Source: Patescibacteria group bacterium (GTDB taxonomy: Bacteria > Patescibacteriota > Patescibacteriia > 2-01-FULL-39-33). Taken from it: a DNA stretch of 64,000 nt. Numbering within the stretch: position 1 is the first letter of the stretch; each line of letters starts with the position of its first letter. The position numbers were made by a program, and so were the translations under genes. The notes below the pieces were generated by a model. The model was not told the origin of the DNA. It saw nothing but the letters and a program-made list of their open reading frames with translations, and made no database searches. This document shows, one piece after another, positions 1,625 through 18,877 of the stretch. The DNA lies in contig JBAZRV010000005.1 in assembly GCA_041662745.1 (NCBI GenBank), positions 6,605 through 70,604 on the forward strand, read 5' to 3'.

Positions 1625-3439
1625 CTAAAAGGCCCGTCTTTTTAAAGCCACCCATAGAGAAACCAACGACACAACAATAATCCCAGCAATCGCAACAATA
1701 CTCCATGCCATATCTCCGATTACAGATGATGCGCCGGTATTCGGCAATTTCGGAACGGCAGCGGCAGCTACAACAACAGTCGCAATAGCATAATCTTTCG
1801 CTGTTAAACCATTAGCTTCGCCGATAGCTGTAGCCGTATTAACAGTCGTTTGCGTAAGTTTTGAAACGCAAGTAAAAGTCCAAATCTCATTATTTTCCAA
1901 TAAATTATTGTTGTTCAAATCACCCGGATGTCCGATGACGCGGCCCGGCAACCCGGTACATTTATCATCAGCAACTGTGACATTGCTCAGCGGTTCCGTA
2001 CCGGGATTAGTGATGGTATAAGTATACGTGACTGTTCCGCCGCCGGCACGAAGCGTCAACGGACTGGGAACTTTCACGATATGGATCAATGGAGGAATAA
2101 TCGGCTGGCCGACAACGACTGAAGCGCTGGCGATATCCGTAGCGCTAATGCCATTGGCCCAACCGGTCGCCACTACGGTATTGGTATGAGTAACTGAAAG
2201 CGTGCGGGAACAGGTATAGACCCAGGTCTCCGCCAAATCAAGCTTGGCATCATTATTTAAGTCTCCTGATATCAAATTTATCGGACCGCAGGAATCGCCG
2301 ACCATTGTAATATTAGACACCGGAACAACGCCAATATTGCGAAGCGTGTAAGTATAAGTCACTGAACCGGGTCCGGCTGGCAAAGAGAGAGGATTGGCCG
2401 TTTTTACTATATCAATAAGGGGCGGCACGGGCGGAACAATTACCGGCGCGCCAATATCATTGTTAGTGACAATACAAAATTTATTATCACCACCAATAAG
2501 GTTAAATTGGCCGTTAGCGTCGCAATCGCCGGAAAACACCCGAGTATAATTAGGATCGGCAGTTTCAGTTACAGTAAACGCGGCCGCAGGCGCCGTAAAA
2601 CTGTTAGTTTCTCCGGATATGACTGATGTGCCATTAACAAATAAAGGGAAATCTGCTACGGTCTTGGTTCTACCGTTATCATTAACAACTGTCTTAACGA
2701 CATTGATTGTTCCCTGAGTCGGTAAACTTCCAGCTATCGGCGCTGCCACACAGGTCGGACCGGAAATAGTGCTATTAGCACCATTCATAGCAATAAAGGT
2801 TCCGGTAAGCGATATAAGTCGGCCATTAATTGTTGCTCCAGAAGCGGAAGTAATGTTGTTTTGGGCAATAAGCGTTCCGACAAAAGTACTATCGGAAGCT
2901 ATGGTTGCATCTCTAACAACCTGGAAAAATACATTACAGGCTTGAGCATTGCCAGCTAAAACGATTGAGCCGGAAAAGGTAAAATCCCTTCCGATTTGGA
3001 AAACCCAAACATCACTATAATCCCCATCTAAAGTAAGAGTACCGGAGAAAGTCTGATCAGAAGCTATAGTCCAAACGCCAGGCGCCGGACTGTTGCTGGC
3101 CCAAACTCCGCTGGTAGTCTGGCTGGCCAAATTATTAAAGGCGGCCAAAGCGGCAATCTGTGCAGAGGCAGATAACCCGCCAGTGCCGAAATAATCAGCA
3201 CCGCCGGTATGAGTCCAAGTTCCAGTTTTTGAAGCCGCCAATCCCGGACTAAGACCTAAATCGCCTGAAATCGTGGTGATGTTAGCTGAGCTCATGGCTG
3301 CAGCGCCCAAGACCGAAAAGCTGGCTGCATCACCCAGCGACGGAGCAGTGGCTGTCGCCGCGGACACAGAAATTGGCCCGACCAAACCAAATGAAATGAT
3401 AGCAGTTAAAATAACTGCTGAGATATTAAATTTTTTCAT
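1625..3439 (-). CDS. LPXTG-anchored surface protein: N-terminal ice-binding-like (DUF3494) domain plus two tandem DUF11 repeat domains
   Basis: Signal peptide (MKKFNISAVILTAIISFGLVGPISVSA). DUF3494-type opening (LGDAASFSVLGAAAMSSANITTISGDLGLSPG). Two ~110-aa repeats with the DUF11 signature (GSVTYTYTLRNIG...SNITMVGD and GTVTYTYTITNPG...SNVTVADDKC). C-terminal KLPNTG, a hydrophobic helix and a KRR tail form a sortase sorting signal. Confidence 0.8.
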   Translation of the reverse strand: MKKFNISAVILTAIISFGLVGPISVSAATATAPSLGDAASFSVLGAAAMSSANITTISGDLGLSPGLAASKTGTWTHTGGADYFGTGGLSASAQIAALAAFNNLASQTTSGVWASNSPAPGVWTIASDQTFSGTLTLDGDYSDVWVFQIGRDFTFSGSIVLAGNAQACNVFFQVVRDATIASDSTFVGTLIAQNNITSASGATINGRLISLTGTFIAMNGANSTISGPTCVAAPIAGSLPTQGTINVVKTVVNDNGRTKTVADFPLFVNGTSVISGETNSFTAPAAAFTVTETADPNYTRVFSGDCDANGQFNLIGGDNKFCIVTNNDIGAPVIVPPVPPLIDIVKTANPLSLPAGPGSVTYTYTLRNIGVVPVSNITMVGDSCGPINLISGDLNNDAKLDLAETWVYTCSRTLSVTHTNTVVATGWANGISATDIASASVVVGQPIIPPLIHIVKVPSPLTLRAGGGTVTYTYTITNPGTEPLSNVTVADDKCTGLPGRVIGHPGDLNNNNLLENNEIWTFTCVSKLTQTTVNTATAIGEANGLTAKDYAIATVVVAAAAVPKLPNTGASSVIGDMAWSIVAIAGIIVVSLVSLWVALKRRAF

Positions 3440-3795
3440 TGTTGATTACTTAATTATTAAAAGAACTTAGCTCGCGTATATTTTAAACCTCCTTCATAAT
3501 AATTATTATACCACTTTTTTTACTTTATTCATAACTCAATACCCCCCTGTGGATAAGTGAAAATAATTATACTACGAAACGTTTCTAAATATTGCTATCA
3601 ATAGATCAGTTACCGTAAATTTACATAAAAAATACTTCCCTCACCCTCTTTTGATTCAAACCAAACTTTCCCGCCCAACTTATCAACTAACGATTTCAAA
3701 AGATAAAGGCCTAAACCCGTTCCAAGCGGCTCTTTCTCAATGACTGGAGGGTTTGGGGGGTAATTTTTGCCCTACGCCTCGCCACATCATACTGT

Positions 3796-4650: not shown

Positions 4651-5613
4651 TTATTGCGAGAATTTAGAACCGTTAAGATCTCCGTTATTATTATAACCGC
4701 GGCTTTCCCAAAATCCCTTGTAATCAGTGTCGCTTGATAATTCAATTTTAGTGATCCATTTTATCCATTTATAGCCCCATTTTTGTTCGGCCGCCAATTG
4801 GAAAGGAAATCCCCTTTCCGGCGGCAAAACAACGCCATTAAGCTTATCGGCCATGATGATATTATTCTGCATGACATATTCCAGGGGAAAGGAAGTGGAA
4901 TAGCCGTCAGCCGCATAAAAAATTATGGTTTTGGCTTCCGGTTTGATTGCCGTATCTTTCAATAAATCCCTTACTAATACTCCTTCCCATAAAGCCTTAA
5001 CGCTCCAGCCCTCCACGCAATTCAACTGAATAACTTTTTGATATATTGGAAGTTTCAATATGTCGTCATATTTATATGACATCGGCGTTTCAATCAAGCC
5101 GGAGATTTCCAGCCGATAGCTATCCTTATCAACTTGCTGGGGACCTTTGATGGAATTCTCGCGAAAATCATTAATTGATCCCAATTTCTCGCCCCGATAC
5201 TCCGTTATCTCTACGCCGGAAAGCGTGATCGGTTTGCTTTTTCCGAAGTAATTGCCATTAAAATATGCAACAACGCCGGCTAAAATAATAATACCGACGG
5301 CAACCGCAGTTATGATGTAAATAATATTAGCATTTCCTTTGGTCGATTTAAATTTGCCGACGATAGCTTCTTTTAATTCCCGCCTTTTCAAAATCAAATG
5401 GATAAGGATCAATAAAAATAAAATGATTCCGCTCCAGTCGTGGATCATTGAAATTTTCGAGGCCGGCAAAAAATCATACGCCAAAAGAAAATATCTTTGC
5501 CATTCGGGGAATTTAATTATTCCCGTTCCCGCCAAGAGAATAAAATCCAGAAACATAGCAATGATAATAAAGCGTTTAAATGCAGTCATATTATTGGCTT
5601 TATTATACCACAA
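4651..5613 (-). CDS. membrane-anchored molybdopterin-binding oxidoreductase (sulfite-oxidase family, MsrP/YedY-like catalytic domain fused to an N-terminal 3-TM domain)
   Basis: Oxidored_molyb signatures ([22 protein letters not shown] and [24 protein letters not shown]). N-terminal ~110 aa carry three TM helices with conserved His ([18 protein letters not shown]), possibly a heme-binding MsrQ-like module. Confidence 0.65.
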
Positions 5614-5663
5614 CCAAGCATAAAAATCTAAAATATAATAAGGTTTTCAATTTTTAAAATAGA

Positions 5664-5729
5664 ACGACCGGCATTCATGGCGAATACCGGTCGTTTGGAA
5701 AACAAATTCAAAGCTCAGCGGACTGGATT
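5664..5729. repeat. distal copy of a 66-bp direct repeat (attR-like) carrying the displaced 3' end of tRNA-Asn
   Basis: 62/66 identity with 20881-20946. Contains the hairpin acgaccggcattcatgGcgaataccggtcgt, the flank ggaaaacaaattcaaag, and the 16-nt tRNA 3' end ctcagcggactggatt, then diverges. Confidence 0.7.
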
Positions 5730-6098
5730 TCCGTCTCATCTTTTCTTCCGAAAAGATTGCGGTGTCGCGGTCAGAGCTGAATGCTCCCAGGGTCGCATCC
5801 AGCTACGCTCAACTGCGTTTTATTTTGACAGAATTCAAAATAAAACTTGTTTCGTTCCTGCCCTGTTCGAATCCAACTAAACTGAAAATAGTTTAAAATA
5901 AAACAGGGCATAAAGCCCCGTTTTATTTTAAACAAGTCCAAAGCTCCACGCTACGGTCTGGAACCATTTTTACCAAGGGTTCTTGGGGTCTTTATGAGCG
6001 TTTTCTACCGGGAATCGGTCGGGGTAAAATGCGACAAATGCGACAGTACTTTATGCTGGTTTTATTGGACAAAATGAAGATTTGATAGTCCAATATTA

Positions 6099-6647
6099 CT
6101 ATACATTAAAATTATACCCAACGGGAGGATTATCTAATAATTCTTTGTACTCATTATTATGTCTATCTATTTCCCCTCTATCTACGGAATAGATATTTCC
6201 AAGCGTGTCTAAAATATATATATAATCACAATTAACAAGGTTAACATCAATTAATTTCTGGGTATAAATAAAACCCTCCTCATTTAATCGTACGGGAGCA
6301 TCGGATAATGGCGTATTAATTTTTATTTGACCAAAACGTCCATATATTAGTCTGCTTGCAAATATTCCATCCTTGCCAGTTTTTATTATGTTTATAAAAG
6401 AAACAACTTTATTTTTTGAAATTATATCAAAACCCAATCGTAATTTTAAATTCGCTTTTTGTCTTGAATAATCATACAACTTCCAATAAGCATTTATAAA
6501 TAAGCCACCAATTGAAAAAACAAATGCGGCGATAGAAAGTATTAATGCCATTGGAATATCCAAATATATATTAATCAAAAAAATCAGAAGCAATACTATT
6601 GTTATACTTAACAATATTAACAATATTGGCAATCGAAATTTATCCAT
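6099..6647 (-). CDS. hypothetical membrane protein (2 N-terminal TM helices); third gene of the AlbA_2 operon
   Basis: ORF in a very AT-rich block. N-terminal TM helices (LPILLILLSITIVLLLIFLINIYL, ALILSIAAFVFSIGGLFINAY). Its start lies 3 bp after the upstream gene's stop. Confidence 0.5.
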   Translation of the reverse strand: MDKFRLPILLILLSITIVLLLIFLINIYLDIPMALILSIAAFVFSIGGLFINAYWKLYDYSRQKANLKLRLGFDIISKNKVVSFINIIKTGKDGIFASRLIYGRFGQIKINTPLSDAPVRLNEEGFIYTQKLIDVNLVNCDYIYILDTLGNIYSVDRGEIDRHNNEYKELLDNPPVGYNFNV

Positions 6648-6650
6648 ATT

Positions 6651-7373
6651 TTATAATCTTCTTTCCAAAAATTTTTTCTGATCTTCGACAAAAATCTTTT
6701 TATCTACATTATCCCAATCAAATTTCTTAAAAATTTCAATGGTTGTATCAAGAGCAATCTCATTTGTCAAATTACAAATTTGATCCCGCGAATATACTTT
6801 TTTAATCAGAATTTTATCCTCCTTAAATTTACATATATATGCTCGGTTTGTTTCTCTTAAAAATATATCCCAAAAAAATAACATTCTGTTATTGACTCCC
6901 ACTAATTCAATAATAATTTCCAGTGAGTCAATATTTTCTATATTAGTTAATAATCTTTTAGAGAATTCCAAAATTTCTGTTATAGAATAAAGTGCTCCAA
7001 TAATACTTAAAAATTTATCAACTTTTACCCCGTATTCGTCTTGATATTCCTTCACTTTTTGCGGGGATAATCTCAGATCTTCCCTCATGGAAAAATAATG
7101 TACAAATTGTCCGGTATTATAAAATCTCCAATATTCATAAACTGGCCCCTCAGGCCAATCACAAAATGAGTCAACGCTGTTATTACTACTAGATATAATA
7201 CCGGTTTGACGATCTACGTGCGGGTAATCCCATCCCCGCAACGATACTCTACTTTTTTCAATAATTTTTTTACAATCAGATAGAGATTCAATTAATTTAT
7301 CATCATATTTATTTGGTCTAATAATAACCCTCCAATATCCCTTTAATTTAATTTTGTCTAATAATTCACTCAT
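6651..7373 (-). CDS. hypothetical protein; middle gene of the AlbA_2 operon
   Basis: 240-aa ORF with no recognisable motif. Its start overlaps the stop of the AlbA_2 gene by 4 bp (ATGA). Confidence 0.5.
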   Translation of the reverse strand: MSELLDKIKLKGYWRVIIRPNKYDDKLIESLSDCKKIIEKSRVSLRGWDYPHVDRQTGIISSSNNSVDSFCDWPEGPVYEYWRFYNTGQFVHYFSMREDLRLSPQKVKEYQDEYGVKVDKFLSIIGALYSITEILEFSKRLLTNIENIDSLEIIIELVGVNNRMLFFWDIFLRETNRAYICKFKEDKILIKKVYSRDQICNLTNEIALDTTIEIFKKFDWDNVDKKIFVEDQKKFLERRL

Positions 7374-8014
7374 AAATTATCTTTTATTAAATCAGTATTA
7401 AATTTATCTGAATCTGTTTCAGTGTCCACATTTAATAAGTTAACACAAGGGAGTTTTTTTAATATATCTTCTTTTTTCTTTTGAACCATCCGATCTAATA
7501 ATTCGCGCCACTCATGAATACTGGATATTTCCCTAGACTCAATCGGGGCTTTCGATCTGATATATATCGCATTCTTTCTTAACGCAATATTTTCATAATG
7601 ATTGCCCCCTTGCTTTTTAAACAGAGCAAAATCTGTACATACAGTGGGTTCAATTGATTCATGAATCTGTAAAATGATAAAGTTTTTAGATTCATCATCA
7701 ATTATTAAATTATCAGAAAAAATAGTAAACTCAATAATTGGGTCACAAAATCTTTTTATGAACCTCGCGATATCATCATAATTAAAAGATTGAAAATCGC
7801 TATCAGTCATACCCGATAAACTAACGCTTCGGTCTTTTTCTTCTTTGACACCCAAAACAATCACGCCACCCTGATCATTATTAGCCATAGCCAACATAGC
7901 TTTTAAAACGTTTATTTTCGTTTCGTAAGCATTCCAATTCAGTGATCCTTTATATTCAATGCTTTGTTCCTCATGACGACGTATTATGTAATTCGAAAAT
8001 TCTTCATTAAACAT
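7370..8014 (-). CDS. AlbA_2 (Schlafen-like) putative DNA-binding domain protein
   Basis: N-terminal region fits the AlbA_2 pattern (EQSIEYKGSLNWNAYETKINVLKAMLAMANNDQGGVIVLGVKEE). The C-terminal half is uncharacterised. Confidence 0.55.
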   Translation of the reverse strand: MFNEEFSNYIIRRHEEQSIEYKGSLNWNAYETKINVLKAMLAMANNDQGGVIVLGVKEEKDRSVSLSGMTDSDFQSFNYDDIARFIKRFCDPIIEFTIFSDNLIIDDESKNFIILQIHESIEPTVCTDFALFKKQGGNHYENIALRKNAIYIRSKAPIESREISSIHEWRELLDRMVQKKKEDILKKLPCVNLLNVDTETDSDKFNTDLIKDNL

Positions 8015-10292: not shown

Positions 10293-10877
10293 ATGATTAA
10301 GAGTCCCACCAAAAAAAAGTTGCTCGCTGAATTGGAAAAAAACGGCAATGTCACCATTGCCTGTTTAAAGTCCGGAGTCAACCGAGCGACTTTCTACCGG
10401 TGGAAGCAAGAGAGTAATGAGTTCAAGGAGAGAGCGGAACAAGCTGAACTATCCGGACGAGAAAATAACTGCGATATTGCCGAACAATCTTTGATGTTGA
10501 AAATCAAAGATAAAGATTTAGGAGCGATTAAATACCTGTTAAGCCATAACTCTCCAAGATATAAAGGCAAGGAAACTAGCATGGCGGTGATTATCCACAA
10601 GAAGGAAATGCCTGAATCAGAATTTATTAGCATAGAGCAACCTGAAGTATATAATAGAGTTTGTCATGAATATGCAATTGAGCTTCAAGAAAAATATAAG
10701 TATTTGGGAGAAAAATTACCAAACAAACCCAATGGATTACCGATAGAACTTGATGAACTGCCTCTTTATGAAACATACATTGAAGATTGGAAAGAAGAAA
10801 GAAGAAAGGAAAGGGTCGCAGCAGGACTGGAGCATGAACGACAGGTTATGCCATGGATCGCGCAGAAGGAAGATTAA
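10293..10877 (+). CDS. HTH-domain protein, terminase small subunit-like or excisionase-like
   Basis: N-terminal HTH (NVTIACLKSGVNRATFYRWKQE). Lies 16 bp after the ParB-MTase gene. The charged C-terminal half is uncharacterised. Confidence 0.4.
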   Translation: MIKSPTKKKLLAELEKNGNVTIACLKSGVNRATFYRWKQESNEFKERAEQAELSGRENNCDIAEQSLMLKIKDKDLGAIKYLLSHNSPRYKGKETSMAVIIHKKEMPESEFISIEQPEVYNRVCHEYAIELQEKYKYLGEKLPNKPNGLPIELDELPLYETYIEDWKEERRKERVAAGLEHERQVMPWIAQKED

Positions 10878-10880
10878 TGA

Positions 10881-11963
10881 TTATTCCAAATGGGTGCTGG
10901 CTTTTATAACCAGCAATATGTCATCGTAATTTTGCAAAAATTCCTGCGGTTCTATTTTGTAAGTATTTTCCAATAATTCATCTGCTGTCGGTTTAAGCTT
11001 TGATTTGGATATTTCGTTATAAAAAGCATTGAAATATTTGTCAAACACTTCTTTATCGGTATGATTCTTGAGCCAGCCGAATTTAATCAAAAATGTGCCG
11101 TCGGAATAGATTGAGAATGGCGAAATAGTCGAACTAAGCTTTTTGATTATTGGCGCAAACGAACCATTGGCATTACCAGTACCCCATTTTATCTTGTCAG
11201 TATTCGCTTTGAGATATTCATAAAGCTTAAATACTTTCTCTGCTTCCGCACCTAATTTTTCTTTCGCTTGAATAAAAAAACTTTCTTCATCCCAGATTCT
11301 CCTTTGGTTAATAGTAGAAACAGACATGCCCTTTTTTACCTCTACGCCAAACAACTTGGGAATCATTATCTCGTACTGCTCGTACTTGTAATATTCCATT
11401 TGAACGGCATAGATATCGAAATGGCTATTCTGGTTGATATAGACAATCAGGTCTTTCAACCTGTCTTCAATCGAATCCATCAGAATAACGAATTTGATAT
11501 TGCCTTGCTGGAGGTTATTTTTAATGGCTTCCAGCATGTCAACTACCTGCTCATCGTCAATATTAAAAAATGCCTTGGCTTTCTCTTCAAAACTGACTTT
11601 AAATTTATTACTAACCTCACTATTTATCTTAGCGATGAATTCGCTAAAGTCGCTATGGCGCCAAAGCGAAGCTCCGTAATCAAGGGCTTGGGCCACGACT
11701 GTTCTTTTGTCGGGATTCTTGTAAAGCTTAGTTTCCACGACATAGATGTCGCCATCCTTGTCGATAGCCAAAGCATCGATGGGGCCAGACTCGGTCGAGA
11801 ATTCCCTGGCGACAACAAATAGCTTCTTGTCTTCTTCGATTTCATAGACAGGAATGGACTCGGGGTTCTCATGGATATAATTCTGCAAATAGCCTTCTTT
11901 CTCAAAGATAGACTTATCAATCCTCTGAGCCTTTTTGCCGTCTTGAGAAATAATTATGGACAT
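10881..11963 (-). CDS. hypothetical protein with putative N-terminal PD-(D/E)xK nuclease-like motif (NucS/DUF91-like)
   Basis: D-x(n)-E-x-K arrangement (GPIDALAIDKDGDIYVVETKLYK) resembling the NucS/DUF91 endonuclease core. The rest is uncharacterised. Confidence 0.35.
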   Translation of the reverse strand: MSIIISQDGKKAQRIDKSIFEKEGYLQNYIHENPESIPVYEIEEDKKLFVVAREFSTESGPIDALAIDKDGDIYVVETKLYKNPDKRTVVAQALDYGASLWRHSDFSEFIAKINSEVSNKFKVSFEEKAKAFFNIDDEQVVDMLEAIKNNLQQGNIKFVILMDSIEDRLKDLIVYINQNSHFDIYAVQMEYYKYEQYEIMIPKLFGVEVKKGMSVSTINQRRIWDEESFFIQAKEKLGAEAEKVFKLYEYLKANTDKIKWGTGNANGSFAPIIKKLSSTISPFSIYSDGTFLIKFGWLKNHTDKEVFDKYFNAFYNEISKSKLKPTADELLENTYKIEPQEFLQNYDDILLVIKASTHLE

Positions 11964-12297: not shown

Positions 12298-12682
12298 AGA
12301 GTTTTTGGGTTAATAATAAAGCCAGCTAAGTGGTTTTAGCTGGCTTGAGAGAATTTGCATAAACACAAAGCCCCACGCCAGCTGAGCCTTACGGCCCCAT
12401 ACCCGTTTCCAGGCATGACCCAACAAAGAGTCGCTGATCGTGGGGATCAGTATCTTTGTTGGGTATTTTGAGCCATGCCCGCCAAATGACGGGTTTAGGC
12501 TCTGCTTTCGCTATAAATTGTACTTTTATTGTACTATAAAAGGTTCGACTTTGTCCACCATACTAGCTTAAATAACAGAATCCGCGAAGTCGAGTTATCA
12601 ACAGGTTGCCTACTGCCGGGGTCTGGACTCCCAGCCGCCAGTCCGGCATCATGTCCCTTACATAAGAAATAACTTCAAATTT

Positions 12683-14008
12683 ATGGGACTAATAAGTGAC
12701 AAGGAAATGGCGGTTTTAGGGCATACCAGGACGTTTGAGGCGGTCTTACCGGTAAAGTACTGTCTTTATGCGAGAAAGTCGACCGAGGACGACGAGAGGC
12801 AGGCTTTGAGCATCGAATCTCAGGTTAAAGAGATGCTGGAGCAAGCCCAAAAAGACAAACTGAATATTGCGGAAATAAAGAGAGAATCCCACTCAGCCAA
12901 AGACTCAGGTGAAAGGCCAGTATTCAATAAACTGATGAGGGAGATTAAGGAGGGAAAATTCGACGGCATCCTGACCTGGGCTCCAGATAGATTGAGCCGT
13001 AACGCTGGCGACTTGGGCAGTATCGTCGATTTGATGGACAGAGGCATGATCAAGGAGATAAGAACGCACGGCCAAACATTCATCAACTCCCCTAATGAGA
13101 AATTCCTGCTGATGATTCTGTGTTCCCAAGCCAAATTAGAAAATGATAATAAGGGCGAGAATGTTAAAAGAGGATTGAGAGCCAAAGTGGAAATGGGCTG
13201 GAGGCCGGGCATGCCACCGCTCGGTTATCTTCACGACAAGAATGGCGACAAAGGCAAAAGAAGAGCTTTTACTGATCCCAAAAGAGCGCCGATCATGAAG
13301 CAATTGTTTGATAAAGTTGCCTATGAGGGCTGGAGCGGTCGAGCCATATTCAAATGGCTCGATGAAATGGATTTCAGAACTAGATCGGGCAAGAAGATGA
13401 CCTTAAGCTCAATCTACCTCGTACTCAAAAATACTTACTACTATGGCTACTTTGAATATCCAGTGGGCAGCGGCAATTGGTATAAAGGCGGACACGAGCC
13501 GATTATAACAAAAGAAACTTTCGATGAAGCTCAAATACAACTCACGGTAGCGCCAAAATCCAAACCAGGCACCAAAGAATTCAGCTTCACTAAAATGATA
13601 AAATGCGGAGCTTGCGGATCAGGTGTAACGGCAGAAGAGAAATACAAAAAACTGAGCGATGGCTCAGTCAAAAAATATATCTATTACCACTGCAGCAGAT
13701 TCAATGATCTTAAATGCAAAGAATCCTACATCAGGGAAGAAAACTTAACTATTCAGCTAGTCAAATTAATAGATAAAATCGACATTAATCTTTTGAAAAC
13801 CCAAAAGAGAATTAAGGATGAGATAGACCGCTATCAAAAATTCACTAAAAATATCCTAGGTGTAGATAACAAAATAAAGATGCCGGAGATAAATATGAAA
13901 GACTATGCCAGATATGTTTTGACGGATGGCACTAGAGAAGAAAAAAGAGAACTGCTTAATTGCCTGGATTCTGAATTAAAATTGATGGGGCAGAAGATTT
14001 ATATTTAA
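12683..14008 (+). CDS. large serine recombinase (resolvase/invertase catalytic domain, recombinase domain and zinc ribbon)
   Basis: N-terminal catalytic domain with the nucleophile-Ser context (YCLYARKSTEDDERQALSIESQ) and resolvase motifs (GILTWAPDRLSRN). Central recombinase domain, then C-terminal Cys cluster (CGACGSG...YYHCSRF). Confidence 0.85.
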   Translation: MGLISDKEMAVLGHTRTFEAVLPVKYCLYARKSTEDDERQALSIESQVKEMLEQAQKDKLNIAEIKRESHSAKDSGERPVFNKLMREIKEGKFDGILTWAPDRLSRNAGDLGSIVDLMDRGMIKEIRTHGQTFINSPNEKFLLMILCSQAKLENDNKGENVKRGLRAKVEMGWRPGMPPLGYLHDKNGDKGKRRAFTDPKRAPIMKQLFDKVAYEGWSGRAIFKWLDEMDFRTRSGKKMTLSSIYLVLKNTYYYGYFEYPVGSGNWYKGGHEPIITKETFDEAQIQLTVAPKSKPGTKEFSFTKMIKCGACGSGVTAEEKYKKLSDGSVKKYIYYHCSRFNDLKCKESYIREENLTIQLVKLIDKIDINLLKTQKRIKDEIDRYQKFTKNILGVDNKIKMPEINMKDYARYVLTDGTREEKRELLNCLDSELKLMGQKIYI

Positions 14009-14095: not shown

Positions 14096-15565
14096 TTATG
14101 ACGCTTTTAAAAAAATATATGTATTCCTCAATGCAGGAAAAATTCTTAACAGCTTATTAGAATTTTTGTCAAAATCAGGCAAATTTTTAATTGCAATCAA
14201 AAAATACCTAGCAATTTTCTCTTCGTTAGAGAATAATTGATAAAAATCATTTTTTATGGACATCTTTGAACCATAAGAGCCAAACTTAGCAATAAAAATT
14301 AAATAATATCCAATAAACATAAAATTAGATGTGCCATAAACCTTTTCCTTTTCTAATGACAAAACTAATTCCATGTCAATTTCATTTGCTTTTAATAATG
14401 CTCTTAAAATAAAAATTTTCTGGTATAAGTAAGGCGACGATTTCAGAACGCTTATTAATAATCGTTGAATATCAACCCTATCTATGTAATCCTCTAGATA
14501 ATAACAAATTTCTTTTGAGTAGCATGGATCGAAAAGATTATTTTTTAAAATGCTTTCCAACGGGTGGCTTAAATGTAATCTTTTGAATTTATAGATGCAA
14601 AACTTAAAAACGGTCTTATTAATTTTGTCAACTGCTCTATTTATTACAGCATCGTCCCACATTTCTTTCAGTTGATCATCAACGAAATCGCAATTATCAT
14701 CATCAAAATCGGACATTAAATAATTAACAAAATCCATAGTGTCAGAATAATTATTTTTATTGGTTGTATGTTTCGAATAATTAATTATCTCAGTTTTACC
14801 GCCATTGAGATGCAGATTTAATGGCCTCAGTAATTCCGTCAATTTGCTTAATGCCCTTCTAACGCCGATTTCATCATCCGAAAATACCCTTATATCATCC
14901 ACAAATCTATAATAATTAAATCCAGACTCGATCATGGACTGATCAACCTCGTATAAATATACATTTGCCAAAAATGAAGCACAATCATTGCCCTGGCATA
15001 ATCCAATCTCATCTTCACACCAAGTATTTAAAAGATGGCTTAACTTATCTGAGATTTCTTTTTCTGTTCCTAAATATTTTAATATCTCGATGATTTTTTT
15101 GATTTTGATATGTTCAAAAAATGCGTTGATATCGGTTTTTAAAAGAAACCCATTCGGATTATTAATAAAATTATCATTTGATTTCTTTATAAAACTTTTC
15201 CAACTTTCAATATTTTCATTCCTATTCAAAAAATAATTTTTCTTTTTTGATATCCTATAACCGAAACTGATTTGGCTTGAAACTAGCAACTTATCAATAT
15301 CTTTGCTAAATCTGTTTAGTATTAATTGAAAATACAACCTATCTAGGATAGAAATGAAATATCCTGGCCTCAATATTAAATTCGGCTTCGGTATGTCTAA
15401 TATCAATAAGCTATGAGGAGTATAATTATCAAAATCAATTTCATAAAAAATTGATGGATTATTAATATAATCACGATAATTAATGACATCAGGCCAAAAA
15501 TCATCGTTTTCATCCTTACTGATATTGCTTACGGCTACATTAATTTCTTCCCTAGTGAAATTCAT
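14096..15565 (-). CDS. reverse transcriptase (standalone, defence/Abi-like) with alpha-helical C-terminal domain
   Basis: RT motifs: TDINAFFEHI (motif 2-like), GLCQGNDCASFLANVYLYEVD (motif 4/QG), YYRFVDDIRVF (YxDD catalytic motif), LHLNGGKTEI (motif 6-like). The ~200-aa C-terminal region has no identifiable domain. The gene is very AT-rich. Confidence 0.8.
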   Translation of the reverse strand: MNFTREEINVAVSNISKDENDDFWPDVINYRDYINNPSIFYEIDFDNYTPHSLLILDIPKPNLILRPGYFISILDRLYFQLILNRFSKDIDKLLVSSQISFGYRISKKKNYFLNRNENIESWKSFIKKSNDNFINNPNGFLLKTDINAFFEHIKIKKIIEILKYLGTEKEISDKLSHLLNTWCEDEIGLCQGNDCASFLANVYLYEVDQSMIESGFNYYRFVDDIRVFSDDEIGVRRALSKLTELLRPLNLHLNGGKTEIINYSKHTTNKNNYSDTMDFVNYLMSDFDDDNCDFVDDQLKEMWDDAVINRAVDKINKTVFKFCIYKFKRLHLSHPLESILKNNLFDPCYSKEICYYLEDYIDRVDIQRLLISVLKSSPYLYQKIFILRALLKANEIDMELVLSLEKEKVYGTSNFMFIGYYLIFIAKFGSYGSKMSIKNDFYQLFSNEEKIARYFLIAIKNLPDFDKNSNKLLRIFPALRNTYIFLKAS

Positions 15566-15630: not shown

Positions 15631-16047
15631 TTACAATTTCGATACTAGCTTATTTTCGATTTTAGACATAGACTTATTAAAATTTCTTTGAGTTAATTGG
15701 TGTTCCCAAATCCTCAGAACCTTCCATCCCATTCTTTTTAATTTTCTTCTATTCTTAACATCCCGATGAATATTAGCTTCAATTTTAGCGCGCCAATACT
15801 TCTTTGGCAAGCGTTTTTTCGTATTGCTAAAATTGTAACCGTGCCAAAAATCGCCATCAATAAACACGGCGATTTTTTTGCGTGGCAGGGCGATATCCGG
15901 CTTGCCCGGCGCCCTTTTATAATGCTTTTGGAAATATACGCCTCTTTTCCTTAATTCACCGAAAACTAAAAGCTCCACTTTGGTGTTCTTGCCCCTGATC
16001 TTAGACATTATCTCGCTTCTTTTCTCTTTTGAAAACACGTCTGCCAT
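15631..16047 (-). CDS. vsr: very-short-patch-repair endonuclease Vsr
   Basis: Close match to E. coli Vsr along its length (MADV...KRSEIMSKIRGKNTKVE...PGKPDIAL...IAVFIDGDFWHG...GWKVLRIWEHQL). Confidence 0.85.
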   Translation of the reverse strand: MADVFSKEKRSEIMSKIRGKNTKVELLVFGELRKRGVYFQKHYKRAPGKPDIALPRKKIAVFIDGDFWHGYNFSNTKKRLPKKYWRAKIEANIHRDVKNRRKLKRMGWKVLRIWEHQLTQRNFNKSMSKIENKLVSKL

Positions 16048-16085
16048 AATTCACTGTTGGGATTATTTTCTATTCATTTTCTAAT

Positions 16086-16125
16086 ATGATATAATATTGT
16101 CATACATGTGGATAACTCCACAGGA
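16086..16125 (+). promoter_or_regulatory. putative promoter plus palindromic operator upstream of the LexA-Dcm gene
   Basis: Extended -10 (tgatataat) at 16086-16094, followed by a perfect 16-bp palindrome TGTGGATAACTCCACA (16107-16122) ~23 bp upstream of the ATG. Read directly from the sequence. Confidence 0.4.
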
Positions 16126-16145
16126 ATAAAAAATAACTAGAAAAT

Positions 16146-17696
16146 ATGCCCACACTTACTAAGAAACAAAAAAACGTTCTTGATTTTATTGAGGGCTATC
16201 GCGATAGGAAGCACTATTCCCCCTCCCATGAAGAGATCAAGAATCACTTCAAGCTATCTTCCGTTTCAACTGCGCATCATTATATCTCCAAGTTGCAGAA
16301 GGCCGGATATCTGAAAAAAGAAGATAACCAGCCGAGATCAATAAACCTCTGCTTCGAACCGGTAATCCAGATTGATCTATTGGGCAATATTACTGCCGGC
16401 CAGCCAATCGAAGCGATTGAATTAGGCAAGGAAACAATCGCTATTCCTAGCTATGGACTTAATAGGAATAGTAGCTATTACGCTCTCAAAGTCAAGGGCG
16501 ACAGCATGATCGATGAAGGGATATTCGACGGCAGCATCGTAGTCATCAAGAAGCAATCAACTGCTGAAAACGGCCAGACCGTAGTCGCCGTGATAGATGA
16601 TAACGAGGCAACACTGAAAATGATATACCGCGAAAAGAATAAATTCCGCTTGCAGCCAGCCAACCAAAGCATGCTTCCCTTTTACCGCAAAGAAGTGGAA
16701 ATCCGCGGGGTAGTGATAAAAATCATCAGGGATTTATATAAAGAAGAGCAGAAATTCAGAACTCTTGATCTATTCGCAGGCGTAGGTGGCATCAGGCTGG
16801 GATTTGAAAAAGCCGGTTTCGAGACCGTATTCGCTAATGACTTTGAAAAAGCCTGCGCAGATACTTATAACAAGAACTTCAAGACTTCAAAATTAGTAGT
16901 AGAGGATATTAGGAGAATCGGAATCGATGATCTGCCTGAATTCGACTTCCTGCTCGGCGGCTTTCCTTGCCAGGCATTCTCAATAGCTGGCTACCGCAAA
17001 GGATTCGAAGATGACAAAGGGCGGGGCAACCTATTCTTTGATGTCGCAAGGATAATAGAAACCAGAAGGCCGACAGGATTCCTAATGGAAAACGTCAAGA
17101 ACCTTAAAAGCCATGATAACGGACGGACATTCAAAATCATCAAAGAAACCCTGGAAAACCTCGGCTATCATATCAAAGCCAGGGTTTTGAATAGCGTGGA
17201 GTACGGCAATATCCCCCAGAACCGTGAAAGGATTTACATCGCCGGATTCAGGGACAAAAGGCATTGCGATAATTTCGAATTCCCAAAGCCGGTGAAACTG
17301 ACAAACAAGGTTGCAGATCTTCTCGAAAAAAAAGTTGATGAAAAATATTATTACAATGGAAAGCCTCTTTACCAAAAGCTTAAGGATTTCGTGAAAGAAA
17401 AAAATAAAGTCTACCAATGGCGCCGCCAATACGTCCGTGAAAATAAAAAAGGCGTCTGTCCGACGCTGACTGCGAATATGGGGATGGGCGGCCATAATGT
17501 TCCGATTATCAAGGATGACAAAGGCATTAGGAAGCTTACGCCGTTAGAATGTTTTAGGCTCCAGGGATTTCCAAAGAGCTTCGAGCTTCCAGCTAATTTG
17601 GCTGATTCAGCTCTTTACAAGCAGGCCGGCAATTCAGTTACAGTTACAGTATTGGAAGCGGTAGGCAAGCAAATGATGCAGGCTGTCAGCGACTAA
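16146..17696 (+). CDS. fusion protein: full-length LexA-type repressor (wHTH plus S24 autopeptidase) fused to a C5-cytosine DNA methyltransferase (Dcm-type)
   Basis: aa 1-~195 align with LexA: wHTH (LTKKQKNVLDFIEGY...SKLQKAGYL), Ala-Gly cleavage site (ITAGQP), Ser nucleophile (KVKGDSMIDEG) and Lys (EATLKMI). aa ~200-516 carry C5-MTase motifs I (LDLFAGVGGIRLGF), IV (GGFPCQAFSIAG), VI (ENVKNL), VIII (QNRERIYIAGF) and X (RKLTPLECFRLQGFP). Confidence 0.85.
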   Translation: MPTLTKKQKNVLDFIEGYRDRKHYSPSHEEIKNHFKLSSVSTAHHYISKLQKAGYLKKEDNQPRSINLCFEPVIQIDLLGNITAGQPIEAIELGKETIAIPSYGLNRNSSYYALKVKGDSMIDEGIFDGSIVVIKKQSTAENGQTVVAVIDDNEATLKMIYREKNKFRLQPANQSMLPFYRKEVEIRGVVIKIIRDLYKEEQKFRTLDLFAGVGGIRLGFEKAGFETVFANDFEKACADTYNKNFKTSKLVVEDIRRIGIDDLPEFDFLLGGFPCQAFSIAGYRKGFEDDKGRGNLFFDVARIIETRRPTGFLMENVKNLKSHDNGRTFKIIKETLENLGYHIKARVLNSVEYGNIPQNRERIYIAGFRDKRHCDNFEFPKPVKLTNKVADLLEKKVDEKYYYNGKPLYQKLKDFVKEKNKVYQWRRQYVRENKKGVCPTLTANMGMGGHNVPIIKDDKGIRKLTPLECFRLQGFPKSFELPANLADSALYKQAGNSVTVTVLEAVGKQMMQAVSD

Positions 17697-18877
17697 TCAT
17701 CCTCGGATTCCCCAGACCTATCTTCCTTTACCTCCCCCGCAAATTCTTCATAAGATCCGACTTTAGTGAAGTCAATGTCATATTTTCCTTCTCCAATTTT
17801 GTATATTACGACTGAGTCCAAGCCGATCTCCTCTAATTTGCCATAAGTCAAAAGATCTCTTTCTTTCAGATCCAGTATGTCTCGAAGAAGCCACTGGCCC
17901 AGTGCCGAATTAGGATTGCTCATCAACGCCTTTGATCCGTCCTGGCATACCTTGGCTGACATTTCAGCGCCATTCGGCAGGAGCAGGGTGAATGAAGTGT
18001 CGCGCGGAGGGAAAAATCCCGGATATTCAGAATGTATCAATGCCGGGATCGGAATATACACTTCATCAGGATTTCTCGGCCTGCCTAAGGCATTCCATTG
18101 ATTGAGTCCGCTCCTGGCCGGCACTTCTTTAATTCCTTTTTTTGATGAATAAAGCGGAAGAAAAACATGAGTAAGAGCCTTAATGGGCGCAAAAACAACT
18201 TCCCGTTCAACTTTCCTGAAAACATTTTCAAGCGCATCAAAGGGATTCTCCAGTATTTTTACCGGAAAATCCAATAATGCATCGGATAAATTAAACCTTT
18301 TGTATAATGTGCTCTTGGTCACATTGAAGGAGTACTCATTGCTGCCGTCGCTGAATGAAATCGCATTCGCATTCTTTCCTGATTTGATATTCCTTATTTT
18401 TGATAAATTTACCAGATCCATTCCTGATTCATAAACCAAAATACCGCCCTTTTTCCGAGTAACGCAGTGATACATCATTTTTTCCAAACCGAATATTCTT
18501 TTTGTCGCGTTAATCCGCTCATTCCTCAGCCCGGCTATCTTAATGACTTTTCCCTTATCATCCAAATTTCGGAATAAATTATGCTCGCTATTGAATTCAG
18601 CGATCTTCTGCATAGTCGCTCCATTGCCTTCAAGGAAAGTTTTGATTCCGATTCCAACTTTATTCTTAGCCGCATCAGCTGAACAGTCGGTTCTGGATAA
18701 ATTGTCGGCATTAAAAGACTTGCAAAATAAATTTTCTGCAATCCTGTATTGGATATACGGCTCCTGGCTTTCTGAAAACAAACGGGACAACGATCCGATC
18801 GTACGGAGCATCTCCTGATAATATGATATGCTTTTCTTGTCCTGCTTATTCAGAAACATATAATGATATTTTCTCAC
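17693..18877 (-). CDS. putative type II restriction endonuclease, cognate to the adjacent C5-MTase (function inferred from context)
   Basis: 394-aa ORF convergent with the MTase gene, 3' ends overlapping by 4 bp. No known motif recognised; the call rests on the dcm-vsr neighbourhood. Confidence 0.35.
   Translation of the reverse strand: MRKYHYMFLNKQDKKSISYYQEMLRTIGSLSRLFSESQEPYIQYRIAENLFCKSFNADNLSRTDCSADAAKNKVGIGIKTFLEGNGATMQKIAEFNSEHNLFRNLDDKGKVIKIAGLRNERINATKRIFGLEKMMYHCVTRKKGGILVYESGMDLVNLSKIRNIKSGKNANAISFSDGSNEYSFNVTKSTLYKRFNLSDALLDFPVKILENPFDALENVFRKVEREVVFAPIKALTHVFLPLYSSKKGIKEVPARSGLNQWNALGRPRNPDEVYIPIPALIHSEYPGFFPPRDTSFTLLLPNGAEMSAKVCQDGSKALMSNPNSALGQWLLRDILDLKERDLLTYGKLEEIGLDSVVIYKIGEGKYDIDFTKVGSYEEFAGEVKEDRSGESEDD

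Follow-up and report, generated by a model that had tools for sequence, protein, structure and literature searches.

Why would a DNA methyltransferase (MTase) carry a complete SOS-type repressor as its N-terminal part? The question is raised by one gene in a 64,000-nt stretch of DNA (hereafter the window, meaning the whole stretch analyzed) from a Patescibacteria group bacterium (GenBank assembly GCA_041662745.1, contig JBAZRV010000005.1, positions 6,605 to 70,604). The RpoD of this host is 96% identical to that of a Candidatus Buchananbacteria metagenome-assembled genome, which places the host in that group of Patescibacteria. Here a single uninterrupted open reading frame (ORF) of 516 amino acids (aa) encodes LexA fused in frame to a C5-cytosine MTase, and it lies between a vsr gene and a gene for a type II restriction endonuclease (REase). 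We favor, at a probability of roughly 60%, the explanation that the product is a self-repressed MTase which acts as its own SOS-type repressor and can be derepressed by RecA*, i.e., RecA filaments on single-stranded DNA. The parts of the locus that enter the argument are given below by window coordinates and strand; the codons of the catalytic and cleavage-site residues were read directly.

15631-16047, minus strand: vsr, gene of a very-short-patch T/G mismatch endonuclease, divergent from the shared 98-bp control region
16065-16083, plus strand: candidate operator O1, ATTTTCTA-TTC-ATTTTCTA, a direct repeat of 11-bp period (exact pattern match)
16087-16095, plus strand: extended -10 TGATATAAT (TGaTATAAT), promoter element of the LexA-MTase gene, read from the sequence
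16107-16116, plus strand: 10-mer TGTGGATAAC, the reverse complement of the DnaA-box consensus TTATCCACA
16127-16145, minus strand: candidate operator O2, ATTTTCTA-GTT-ATTTTTTA, an inverted second copy with one mismatch that abuts the start codon
16146-17696, plus strand: LexA-MTase fusion ORF
16146-16337, plus strand: LexA winged-helix domain (aa 1-64)
16377-16733, plus strand: LexA S24 autopeptidase/dimerization domain (aa 78-196)
16395-16400, plus strand: scissile Ala84-Gly85
16503-16505, plus strand: catalytic Ser120
16617-16619, plus strand: catalytic Lys158
16734-16754, plus strand: S24-MTase junction (aa 197-203)
16755-17696, plus strand: HhaI-like C5-cytosine DNA MTase domain (aa 204-516)
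16968-16970, plus strand: catalytic Cys275 of the PCQ motif
17693-18877, minus strand: type II REase ORF (394 aa), convergent, with a 4-bp overlap with the MTase gene

The initial annotation of this locus had described an intact LexA joined to a complete MTase, and Pfam and NCBIfam matches together with the alignment of all key residues bear this out. The winged helix matches Pfam LexA_DNA_bind with 50 bits (cut-off 23.7), the autopeptidase matches Peptidase_S24 over aa 78-191 with 97.6 bits, and the NCBIfam lexA equivalog model TIGR00498 is matched with 167 bits (cut-off 111) over profile positions 1-201 of 203. The first 196 aa are collinear with the LexA proteins of T. maritima (3K2Z, E 1e-33) and E. 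coli (1JHH/3JSO). In careful alignment with these crystal-structure sequences the Ala-Gly site, the serine of G-x-S-M and the lysine of T-x-K all stay in register, at 84-85, 120 and 158 in the window protein and at 84-85, 119 and 156 in E. coli. When 81 fusions were aligned (the window protein and the 80 relatives introduced below), Ala84, Ser120 and Lys158 were found in all 81 and Gly85 in 80, and in 72 more distant fusions Gly84, Ser119 and Lys157 are invariant. Mean pairwise identity is 0.57 in the winged helix-turn-helix (wHTH) domain (aa 1-64), 0.37 in the hinge (aa 65-78), 0.70 in the S24 domain (aa 79-196), 0.22 in the junction and 0.78 in the MTase. The autopeptidase is therefore nearly as constrained as the enzyme. 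Since the catalytic residues are invariant while hinge and junction drift, selection appears to act on catalysis itself, and by this comparison the cleavage apparatus is under strong purifying selection. The protein thus has the N-terminal winged helix and, in an S24 domain, the Ala-Gly bond and Ser/Lys dyad of the LexA family; what it does not share is the form of a free-standing, regulon-wide repressor of ~200 aa. It differs from the LexA SOS repressor by its fusion to a 313-aa enzyme, by a head that falls in a separate clade, by a diverged recognition helix (S-T-A-H-H-Y) and by a private operator, and the evidence holds no sign that it controls any regulon beyond its own gene. An AlphaFold model of the whole fusion (predicted local distance difference test score, pLDDT, 74; weak S24 domain, shallow alignment) was not used for inference.

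The MTase part is complete as well. Pfam DNA_methylase (PF00145) covers aa 204-511 (E 5e-94, profile positions 1-323 of 324), PADLOC MTase_II is matched at E 1e-125, and among solved structures M.HhaI is nearest (E 6e-62 over residues 203-507). Motifs I (FxGxG), IV (PCQ), VI (ENV), VIII (QxRxR), IX and X are present and invariant across 53 relatives. The label "Dcm-type" given to this domain is valid only at the level of the dcm superfamily (TIGR00675, 344 bits), because the E. coli Dcm subfamily model NF007772 gives 181.8 bits against a cut-off of 710. The statement that LexA continues into the MTase without a linker was inexact too, as aa 197-203 form a short, variable and poorly conserved junction with an AlphaFold pLDDT below 50 at aa 197-200. 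No second lexA, S24 or MTase gene was found in the 64-kb window by tblastn.

Could the fusion be an artefact of a frameshift or of assembly? A protein search with the fusion returned at least 120 clusters that are 68-100% identical to it; the three Pfam domains are present in nearly all of them (one N-terminally shorter sequence has no LexA_DNA_bind match), and the source names of these proteins are "transcriptional repressor LexA" or "DNA (cytosine-5)-methyltransferase 1". Scanning one genome per species confirmed 554 stretches; the best 80 of these, taken with 6-10 kb on either side of each match, are the loci counted below (81 with the window). All 80 encode full-length fusions of 64-76% identity. 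Most are labelled as Patescibacteria group, and the labels of some metagenome-assembled genomes that name other taxa look like mislabelling. With more than 120 protein clusters and all 80 of the best genome loci showing the fusion, a frameshift or assembly artefact is ruled out, so the gene is to be read as one uninterrupted ORF, and the database search for homologous fusions that had been recommended has uncovered a large family.

What would such a head bind? The control region contains, as first reported, an extended -10, and in nearly all of the 80 related loci a TATAAT-like hexamer stands at the same position directly after a repeat. In the window this repeat is O1, which occupies the -35/spacer region and ends 3 bp ahead of the extended -10; O2 is centered 62 bp from O1, and the inverted repeat I1 has 26-nt arms. 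Sites of the form ATTTTCTA-N3-ATTTTCTA with up to two mismatches are expected 0.11 times per 64-kb window. Two copies lie within the 98-bp control region, and the rest of the 64 kb has one two-mismatch site only. The window-type repeat is conserved in a subgroup of the relatives (L001-L005, L007, L009, L010, L018) and in L082, and O2 has a perfect counterpart in L001 (TAGAAAATAATTAGAAAAT) and one half-site in L009. In the aligned upstream regions a direct repeat abuts the -10 in about 75 of the 80 loci; its period is 11 bp, and 64 loci have the form TTCGG-N6-TTCGG and the window's subgroup has TTTCTA-N5-TTTCTA. Fusion promoters hold 60 copies of TTCGG-N6-TTCGG, and no other copy is present in 854 kb of flanking sequence. 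That the LexA winged helix recognizes the repeat is argued mainly from the covariation of repeat type and recognition helix: heads with S-T-[IV]-H-[EQ]-H have TTCGG, heads with S-T-A-H-[HY]-Y have TTTCTA, intermediate helices pair with intermediate repeats (L032, L054, and L062), and L081 and L082 provide independent pairings. The canonical LexA boxes GAAC-N4-GTTC and CTGT-N8-ACAG are both absent from the window, and no LexA operator was found at the REase gene or elsewhere in the flanks. Autorepression through promoter-overlapping operators is strongly supported by these sequence patterns. They also fit one of the two roles that the initial annotation had proposed, that DNA damage derepresses an autoregulated operator, in that the conserved operators extend over the core promoter and change together with the helix. 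The divergence of both helix and operator in the window's subgroup looks like insulation from the host LexA.

A different element had been put forward as the operator. TGTGGATAACTCCACA (16107-16122) had been taken for a perfect 16-bp palindrome, and it proves to consist of 6-bp arms around a non-palindromic TAAC. It was rejected as an operator: its right arm is not conserved, and the part that is conserved is a DnaA-box-like 10-mer that does not co-vary with the helix. The 160 nt ahead of the fusion contain the exact 9-mer in 47 of 80 loci, or in 58 of 80 if one mismatch is allowed, and the remaining ~828 kb holds just 19 copies. In 48 TTCGG-type loci the element begins 36-40 nt ahead of the -10, directly before the -35 region; its position in the window differs, being downstream of the -10. 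The consensus (TGTGGATAAC / GTTATCCACA) can be followed through the upstream regions of L001-L080, L081, L082, and L095-L174, sometimes inverted against the -35, and the element is present at standalone lexA promoters as well. As both operator classes have it, its reader is probably not the LexA helix, and DnaA would be the obvious candidate. This suggests an input of the replication initiator into lexA and MTase expression. Elsewhere in the window a second exact 9-mer lies at 3548-3556 (minus strand, TTATCCACA) just after a TATAAT, in the promoter region of a gene for a 604-aa ice-binding-like/DUF7507 secreted protein (1625-3439, minus strand).

Is the repeat confined to the fusions, or does it belong to an SOS system? 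A standalone lexA (L091, helix STVHEH) has TTTCGGC-N5-TTACGGTATAAT at its promoter (5960-5995). A metagenome scan for TTCGG-N6-TTCGG-N0-1-TATAAT gave 120 stretches, and the 80 listed loci (L095-L174) were analyzed. Among the 58 downstream ORFs in these loci 34 are LexA-headed, namely 13 standalone (12 of 197-205 aa and one of 125 aa), 16 of fusion length and 5 partial. The ORFs without LexA behind the repeat include a Y-family polymerase (L164) and a PHP/DnaE-like polymerase (L142); two similar 82-aa proteins of no assigned role also stand behind it (L133 and L174). Since it is found at standalone lexA and polymerase genes, the TTCGG repeat behaves as the SOS box of this lineage. Most LexA-headed MTase genes stand behind a TTCGG-type SOS box, and the MTases seem to have captured lexA along with its native promoter. 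An MTase gene adjoins the standalone lexA in 4 of the 13 loci, and in L096, L150, and L156 it is divergent beside it. L088 (1-1481, a viral contig), L150, and L151 also have standalone lexA genes whose products are of the MTase-head type (199-201 aa, helix STVHEH or STIHEH), each followed at similar spacing by an ORF of exactly 271 aa, a likeness by length and place only.

LexA heads are found on other MTases too. The LexA part (aa 1-203) was searched against 1.84 billion representative proteins, and most of the ~60 nearest clusters are long proteins (295-890 aa) that begin with LexA. Both LexA domains are present in 72 of 72 LexA-headed proteins scanned, with N6_N4_Mtase (31), Eco57I-type (7), D12/Dam (5), N6_Mtase (5), MmeI-type (4), C5 (3), and TaqI-type (2) domains as partners; no non-methyltransferase enzyme partner was seen among these 72. 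Two such loci have the same promoter cassette and a helix that matches the repeat: L081 encodes a LexA-Eco57I-type MTase, then a C5 MTase and a convergent Alw26I-family REase, and L082 a LexA-N4/N6 MTase, then a second MTase and a convergent ORF. In a neighbor-joining tree of 146 heads, 53 of the 56 fused heads fall into one clade of 67, with 10 standalone proteins. A head on an N4/N6 MTase shares 63% identity with that of the window, and the wHTH domain of the window's head reaches only 47% with the TTCGG-class heads within its own MTase family, which indicates that heads and bodies have been shuffled. By these sequence comparisons the window gene is one member of a large unrecognized family in which LexA heads are attached to all DNA methyltransferase classes. 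That several MTase classes are headed and that a headless relative exists (L083, see below) supports a regulatory role of the head that is independent of MTase chemistry.

How might such a protein work? The fusion would dimerize, probably through its LexA S24 domain, and its winged helix would bind O1, which overlaps the core promoter, and O2 in the 5' untranslated region, so that MTase synthesis would be switched off once the enzyme is sufficient. Because repressor and enzyme are one molecule, the repressor would report the MTase level directly. RecA filaments on single-stranded DNA would then prompt the Ser120/Lys158 dyad to cut Ala84-Gly85, a step that we infer from the invariant catalytic residues. 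After cleavage the DNA-binding head would be lost, the promoter derepressed, and an intact S24-MTase fragment would stay behind. More MTase is expected from this, not less, because cleavage removes the repressor head and the MTase stays whole. DNA damage may in this way raise methylation capacity and shield the unmethylated tracts that recombinational repair leaves, and a chromosomal double-strand break made by the REase may likewise lead to more MTase, a feedback on self-restriction. Unbalanced restriction-modification (R-M) activity induces SOS (PMC3874152). The derepressed MTase promoter may also transcribe antisense into the REase gene and lower the REase, since the two genes stand tail-to-tail with no room for a terminator, and the same antisense logic could give a methyltransferase-first timing when the cassette enters a new host. 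The DnaA-box-like element might, speculatively, add a second input from the replication initiator. The physiological role would then resemble, by analogy, a type II version of restriction alleviation.

The cleavage apparatus could also be thought to work in the opposite direction, and the initial annotation had raised this as an abortive-infection or post-segregational-killing trigger: upon RecA*-prompted cleavage the MTase would be inactivated or degraded, methylation would lapse and the REase would kill the cell. Conservation of the apparatus would suit such a trigger, as would an REase gene that has its own promoter-like site without a LexA operator and would stay on, the position of the cassette in a defense island beside a UG21-type reverse transcriptase, and the fact that cleaved LexA fragments are protease substrates in E. 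coli. However, the scissile bond lies upstream of the S24 domain, so that the cut takes off the DNA-binding head and leaves the whole MTase joined to a folded dimerization domain. With operators that overlap the promoter, loss of the head should raise transcription of the MTase gene, and tail-to-tail transcription from the derepressed promoter would lower the REase, not raise it. Existing methylation moreover lasts for generations, and a lapse would be slow and ill-suited to abortive infection. We consider this role disfavored and quite improbable. A second explanation dispenses with the damage input: the LexA head would be a dimeric DNA-binding module of the SsoII-like kind, with cleavage irrelevant or very slow. 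The operator evidence supports autorepression whether or not cleavage occurs, and many MTases autoregulate by simple helix-turn-helix (HTH) heads (PMC3874152). Yet a plain HTH would suffice for that purpose, and the cleavage residues are invariant in ~150 diverged sequences, including heads on unrelated MTases; we regard a constitutive autoregulator as unlikely.

The fusion could instead be a regulator of the host SOS response, either the main LexA or a paralogue acting on host SOS boxes, with the MTase a passenger or a tie between R-M and SOS. Most heads share the TTCGG repeat with standalone lexA and translesion-polymerase genes, which makes cross-binding likely in those lineages, and the NCBI name of the fusions is already "transcriptional repressor LexA." Such a role is nevertheless hard to reconcile with the settings and the make-up of the fusions: they stand in non-syntenic mobile contexts with swappable REases and nearby recombinases, their heads form largely a clade of their own, their partners are exclusively DNA methyltransferases, and the window's head has a diverged helix and a private ATTTTCTA-repeat operator. 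We give it very little probability. The explanation we prefer, a self-repressed MTase derepressed by RecA filaments, has several points to its disadvantage. We infer DNA binding, dimerization, self-cleavage and RecA dependence of the fusion alike, and the S24 domain is modelled at moderate confidence only (AlphaFold pLDDT 50-70). The helix-operator covariation is drawn from related sequences and the number of independent events is small, and the antisense effect on the REase gene and the restriction-alleviation role are deduced from gene layout and analogy. A search for the RecA Walker-A motif found no RecA in the 64-kb window. A symmetric LexA dimer on a direct repeat is unusual, with a precedent in the alphaproteobacterial LexA box GTTC-N7-GTTC, which like TTCGG-N6-TTCGG repeats its half-site in direct orientation and is no palindrome. 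In E. coli, ClpXP and Lon degrade the fragments of LexA; if the S24-MTase fragment is likewise degraded, net MTase could fall transiently.

With which R-M system is the fusion associated? The reported neighbors, a divergent vsr and a convergent REase gene overlapping the MTase gene by 4 bp, were found again by profile and fold searches, and adjacent, tail-to-tail MTase and REase genes make this a type II R-M system. The likely start of the REase is the ATG at 18859, which gives 388 aa. Its sequence matches the REBASE-derived PADLOC model REase_II from end to end (E 9e-104), and its predicted fold (AlphaFold pLDDT 82; fold search) combines an N-terminal PD-(D/E)XK nuclease with a C-terminal B3-like DNA-binding domain; the best fold matches of the nuclease domain are ThaI, NaeI, and HinP1I, and a sequence search of the PDB with the REase gave no matches. 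Vsr matches Pfam Vsr (E 6e-23) and passes TIGR00632 (109.7 bits, cut-off 97.85). The downstream ORF is convergent in 78 of 80 loci, with a median gap of 0 bp (76 of 78 are gaps of up to 20 bp or overlaps). These partners belong to about nine unrelated families, among them the Bsp6I family of REases (27 loci), the NgoFVII-like type of the window (10 loci), one PD-(D/E)XK family, and several without a Pfam match. At least five of the latter, of 280-360 aa (clusters c5, c10, c11, c12, and c25), occupy the REase position next to an MTase whose target-recognition region is conserved, which makes them candidates for new REase families that share one target. The variable target-recognition region of the MTase is 0.80 conserved across loci with nine REase families, which suggests, at the level of sequence, one target common to several of them. 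As a guess from the Bsp6I and NgoFVII family names and the sites of these families, the target would be GCNGC or GCSGC; raw counts show no depletion of either in the window and are uninformative.

Of the 81 loci, only 11 have a Vsr homologue beside the fusion and only 10 the NgoFVII-like REase; neither is an integral part of the design. A 73-aa HTH_3 gene resembling C-protein genes lies upstream of the REase in 13 loci, and the window has none. In L083, an IMG/VR viral contig of higher GC, positions 4986-7734 encode a headless MTase (62% identical), an REase of the same family and Vsr in a co-directional M-R-Vsr operon. This looks like the ancestral headless arrangement, and because such an operon exists the LexA head appears to be an addition to a pre-existing R-M-Vsr system.

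The surroundings of the cassette were surveyed for context; the first two features listed lie outside the proposed switch.

12683-14008, plus strand: large serine recombinase (Pfam Resolvase, Recombinase, Zn_ribbon_recom)
14096-15565, minus strand: UG21/UG32-type defense reverse transcriptase, 489 aa (Pfam RVT_1; PADLOC RT_UG21 E 5e-61, UG32 4e-60)
7370-8014, minus strand: Schlafen/AlbA_2-domain protein, 214 aa
8927-10276, plus strand: ParB_N-N6/N4 methyltransferase
10293-10877, plus strand: HTH gene, terminase-small-like or transposase-like
10881-11963, minus strand: protein matching the PADLOC candidate system PDC-S11, 360 aa (E 1.5e-17)

The module of recombinase, ParB-MTase and HTH gene is also found beside the fusion in L004, L031, L035, L057, and L060, and it probably represents an integrative mobile element with the R-M system as cargo. 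The intergenic region directly upstream of the recombinase gene holds a LOOT RNA of full length at 12384-12501 on the minus strand (Rfam RF03000; 90.9 bits, gathering score 46.4), and the link of this RNA to the recombinase and its mobile module may deserve a closer look. The reverse transcriptase gene stands between the recombinase gene and vsr, and no homologue of it was seen in the 80 related loci. The Schlafen/AlbA_2 and PDC-S11 genes share one low-GC stretch (GC 0.30 at 6-8 kb). With these genes nearby, the R-M cassette appears to be part of a larger defense island.

What would such a protein add to the control of R-M systems? These systems are toxic unless methylation runs ahead of restriction, and the known safeguards are C proteins, simple HTH-headed MTases, antisense RNAs and, for type I only, damage-induced alleviation. 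An MTase with a built-in SOS repressor would add a new safeguard, in which the signal of self-restriction or repair synthesis (RecA on single-stranded DNA) would directly raise the protective enzyme. The design is common: it is present in at least 80 species-level genomes for this C5 family and in ~55 further 50%-identity clusters on other MTase classes, and public records label the proteins only as "LexA" or "cytosine methyltransferase." The initial annotation knew of no described LexA-MTase fusion, and we too found no description in the searchable literature, although earlier work on the Patescibacteria SOS network may contain a mention. The lineage has small genomes and is often without CRISPR. 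For it the comparison yields a direct-repeat SOS box and an unexpected DnaA-box-like element at lexA-type promoters, and the co-varying helix-operator pairs are a natural set for the study and engineering of LexA specificity. Taken together, the loci lead us to propose, tentatively and at somewhat less than even odds, that LexA-headed MTases are a general form of R-M control in Patescibacteria: a portable cassette of DnaA-box-like element, SOS-box operator, promoter and cleavable LexA head, fitted to every MTase class and bringing it under the control of RecA*/SOS and possibly of DnaA. If so, type II restriction alleviation and methyltransferase-first establishment would be achieved without a C protein, mobile R-M elements would read and perhaps perturb the host SOS regulon through the shared box, and sub-lineages like that of the window would have evolved orthogonal helix-operator pairs as insulation.

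Among known systems, the nearest functional precedent is the group of SsoII, EcoRII, and ScrFI, MTases that bind their own promoters and thereby repress their own synthesis (PMC3874152). Like the C5 MTases of the SsoII/Ecl18kI/EcoRII/MspI/ScrFIA type, the window protein has an N-terminal DNA-binding head and candidate operators at its own promoter. Its head, however, is a complete LexA of ~200 aa (wHTH and S24 domain with a cleavable hinge) that is not homologous to their short HTH extensions, and the LexA head, unlike theirs, is found on non-C5 methyltransferases as well. The candidate operators are direct repeats of 11-bp period, and the MTase and REase genes are tail-to-tail rather than divergent as in SsoII; because this leaves no shared intergenic region, a direct activation of the REase gene in the manner of SsoII is unlikely. 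With the C-protein systems (such as PvuII, BamHI, and Esp1396I) the locus shares a dedicated transcription factor that would time MTase against REase at establishment, whereas here there is no C gene and the regulator is inside the MTase, would act on the MTase gene rather than on those of C protein and REase, and is a potential damage switch. Compared with the NgoFVII/NgoAVII and Bsp6I systems with Dcm-Vsr-type repair, the window's REase has a nuclease of PD-(D/E)XK fold, and the NgoAVII nuclease is of the PLD type. A functional analogy exists with type I restriction alleviation, in which HsdR is lost through ClpXP once DNA is damaged. The fusion would likewise move the balance from restriction to modification, so that unmodified repair tracts escape cutting, but this is reached there by proteolysis of the restriction subunit and here, we propose, by derepression of the MTase gene through self-cleavage of its repressor.

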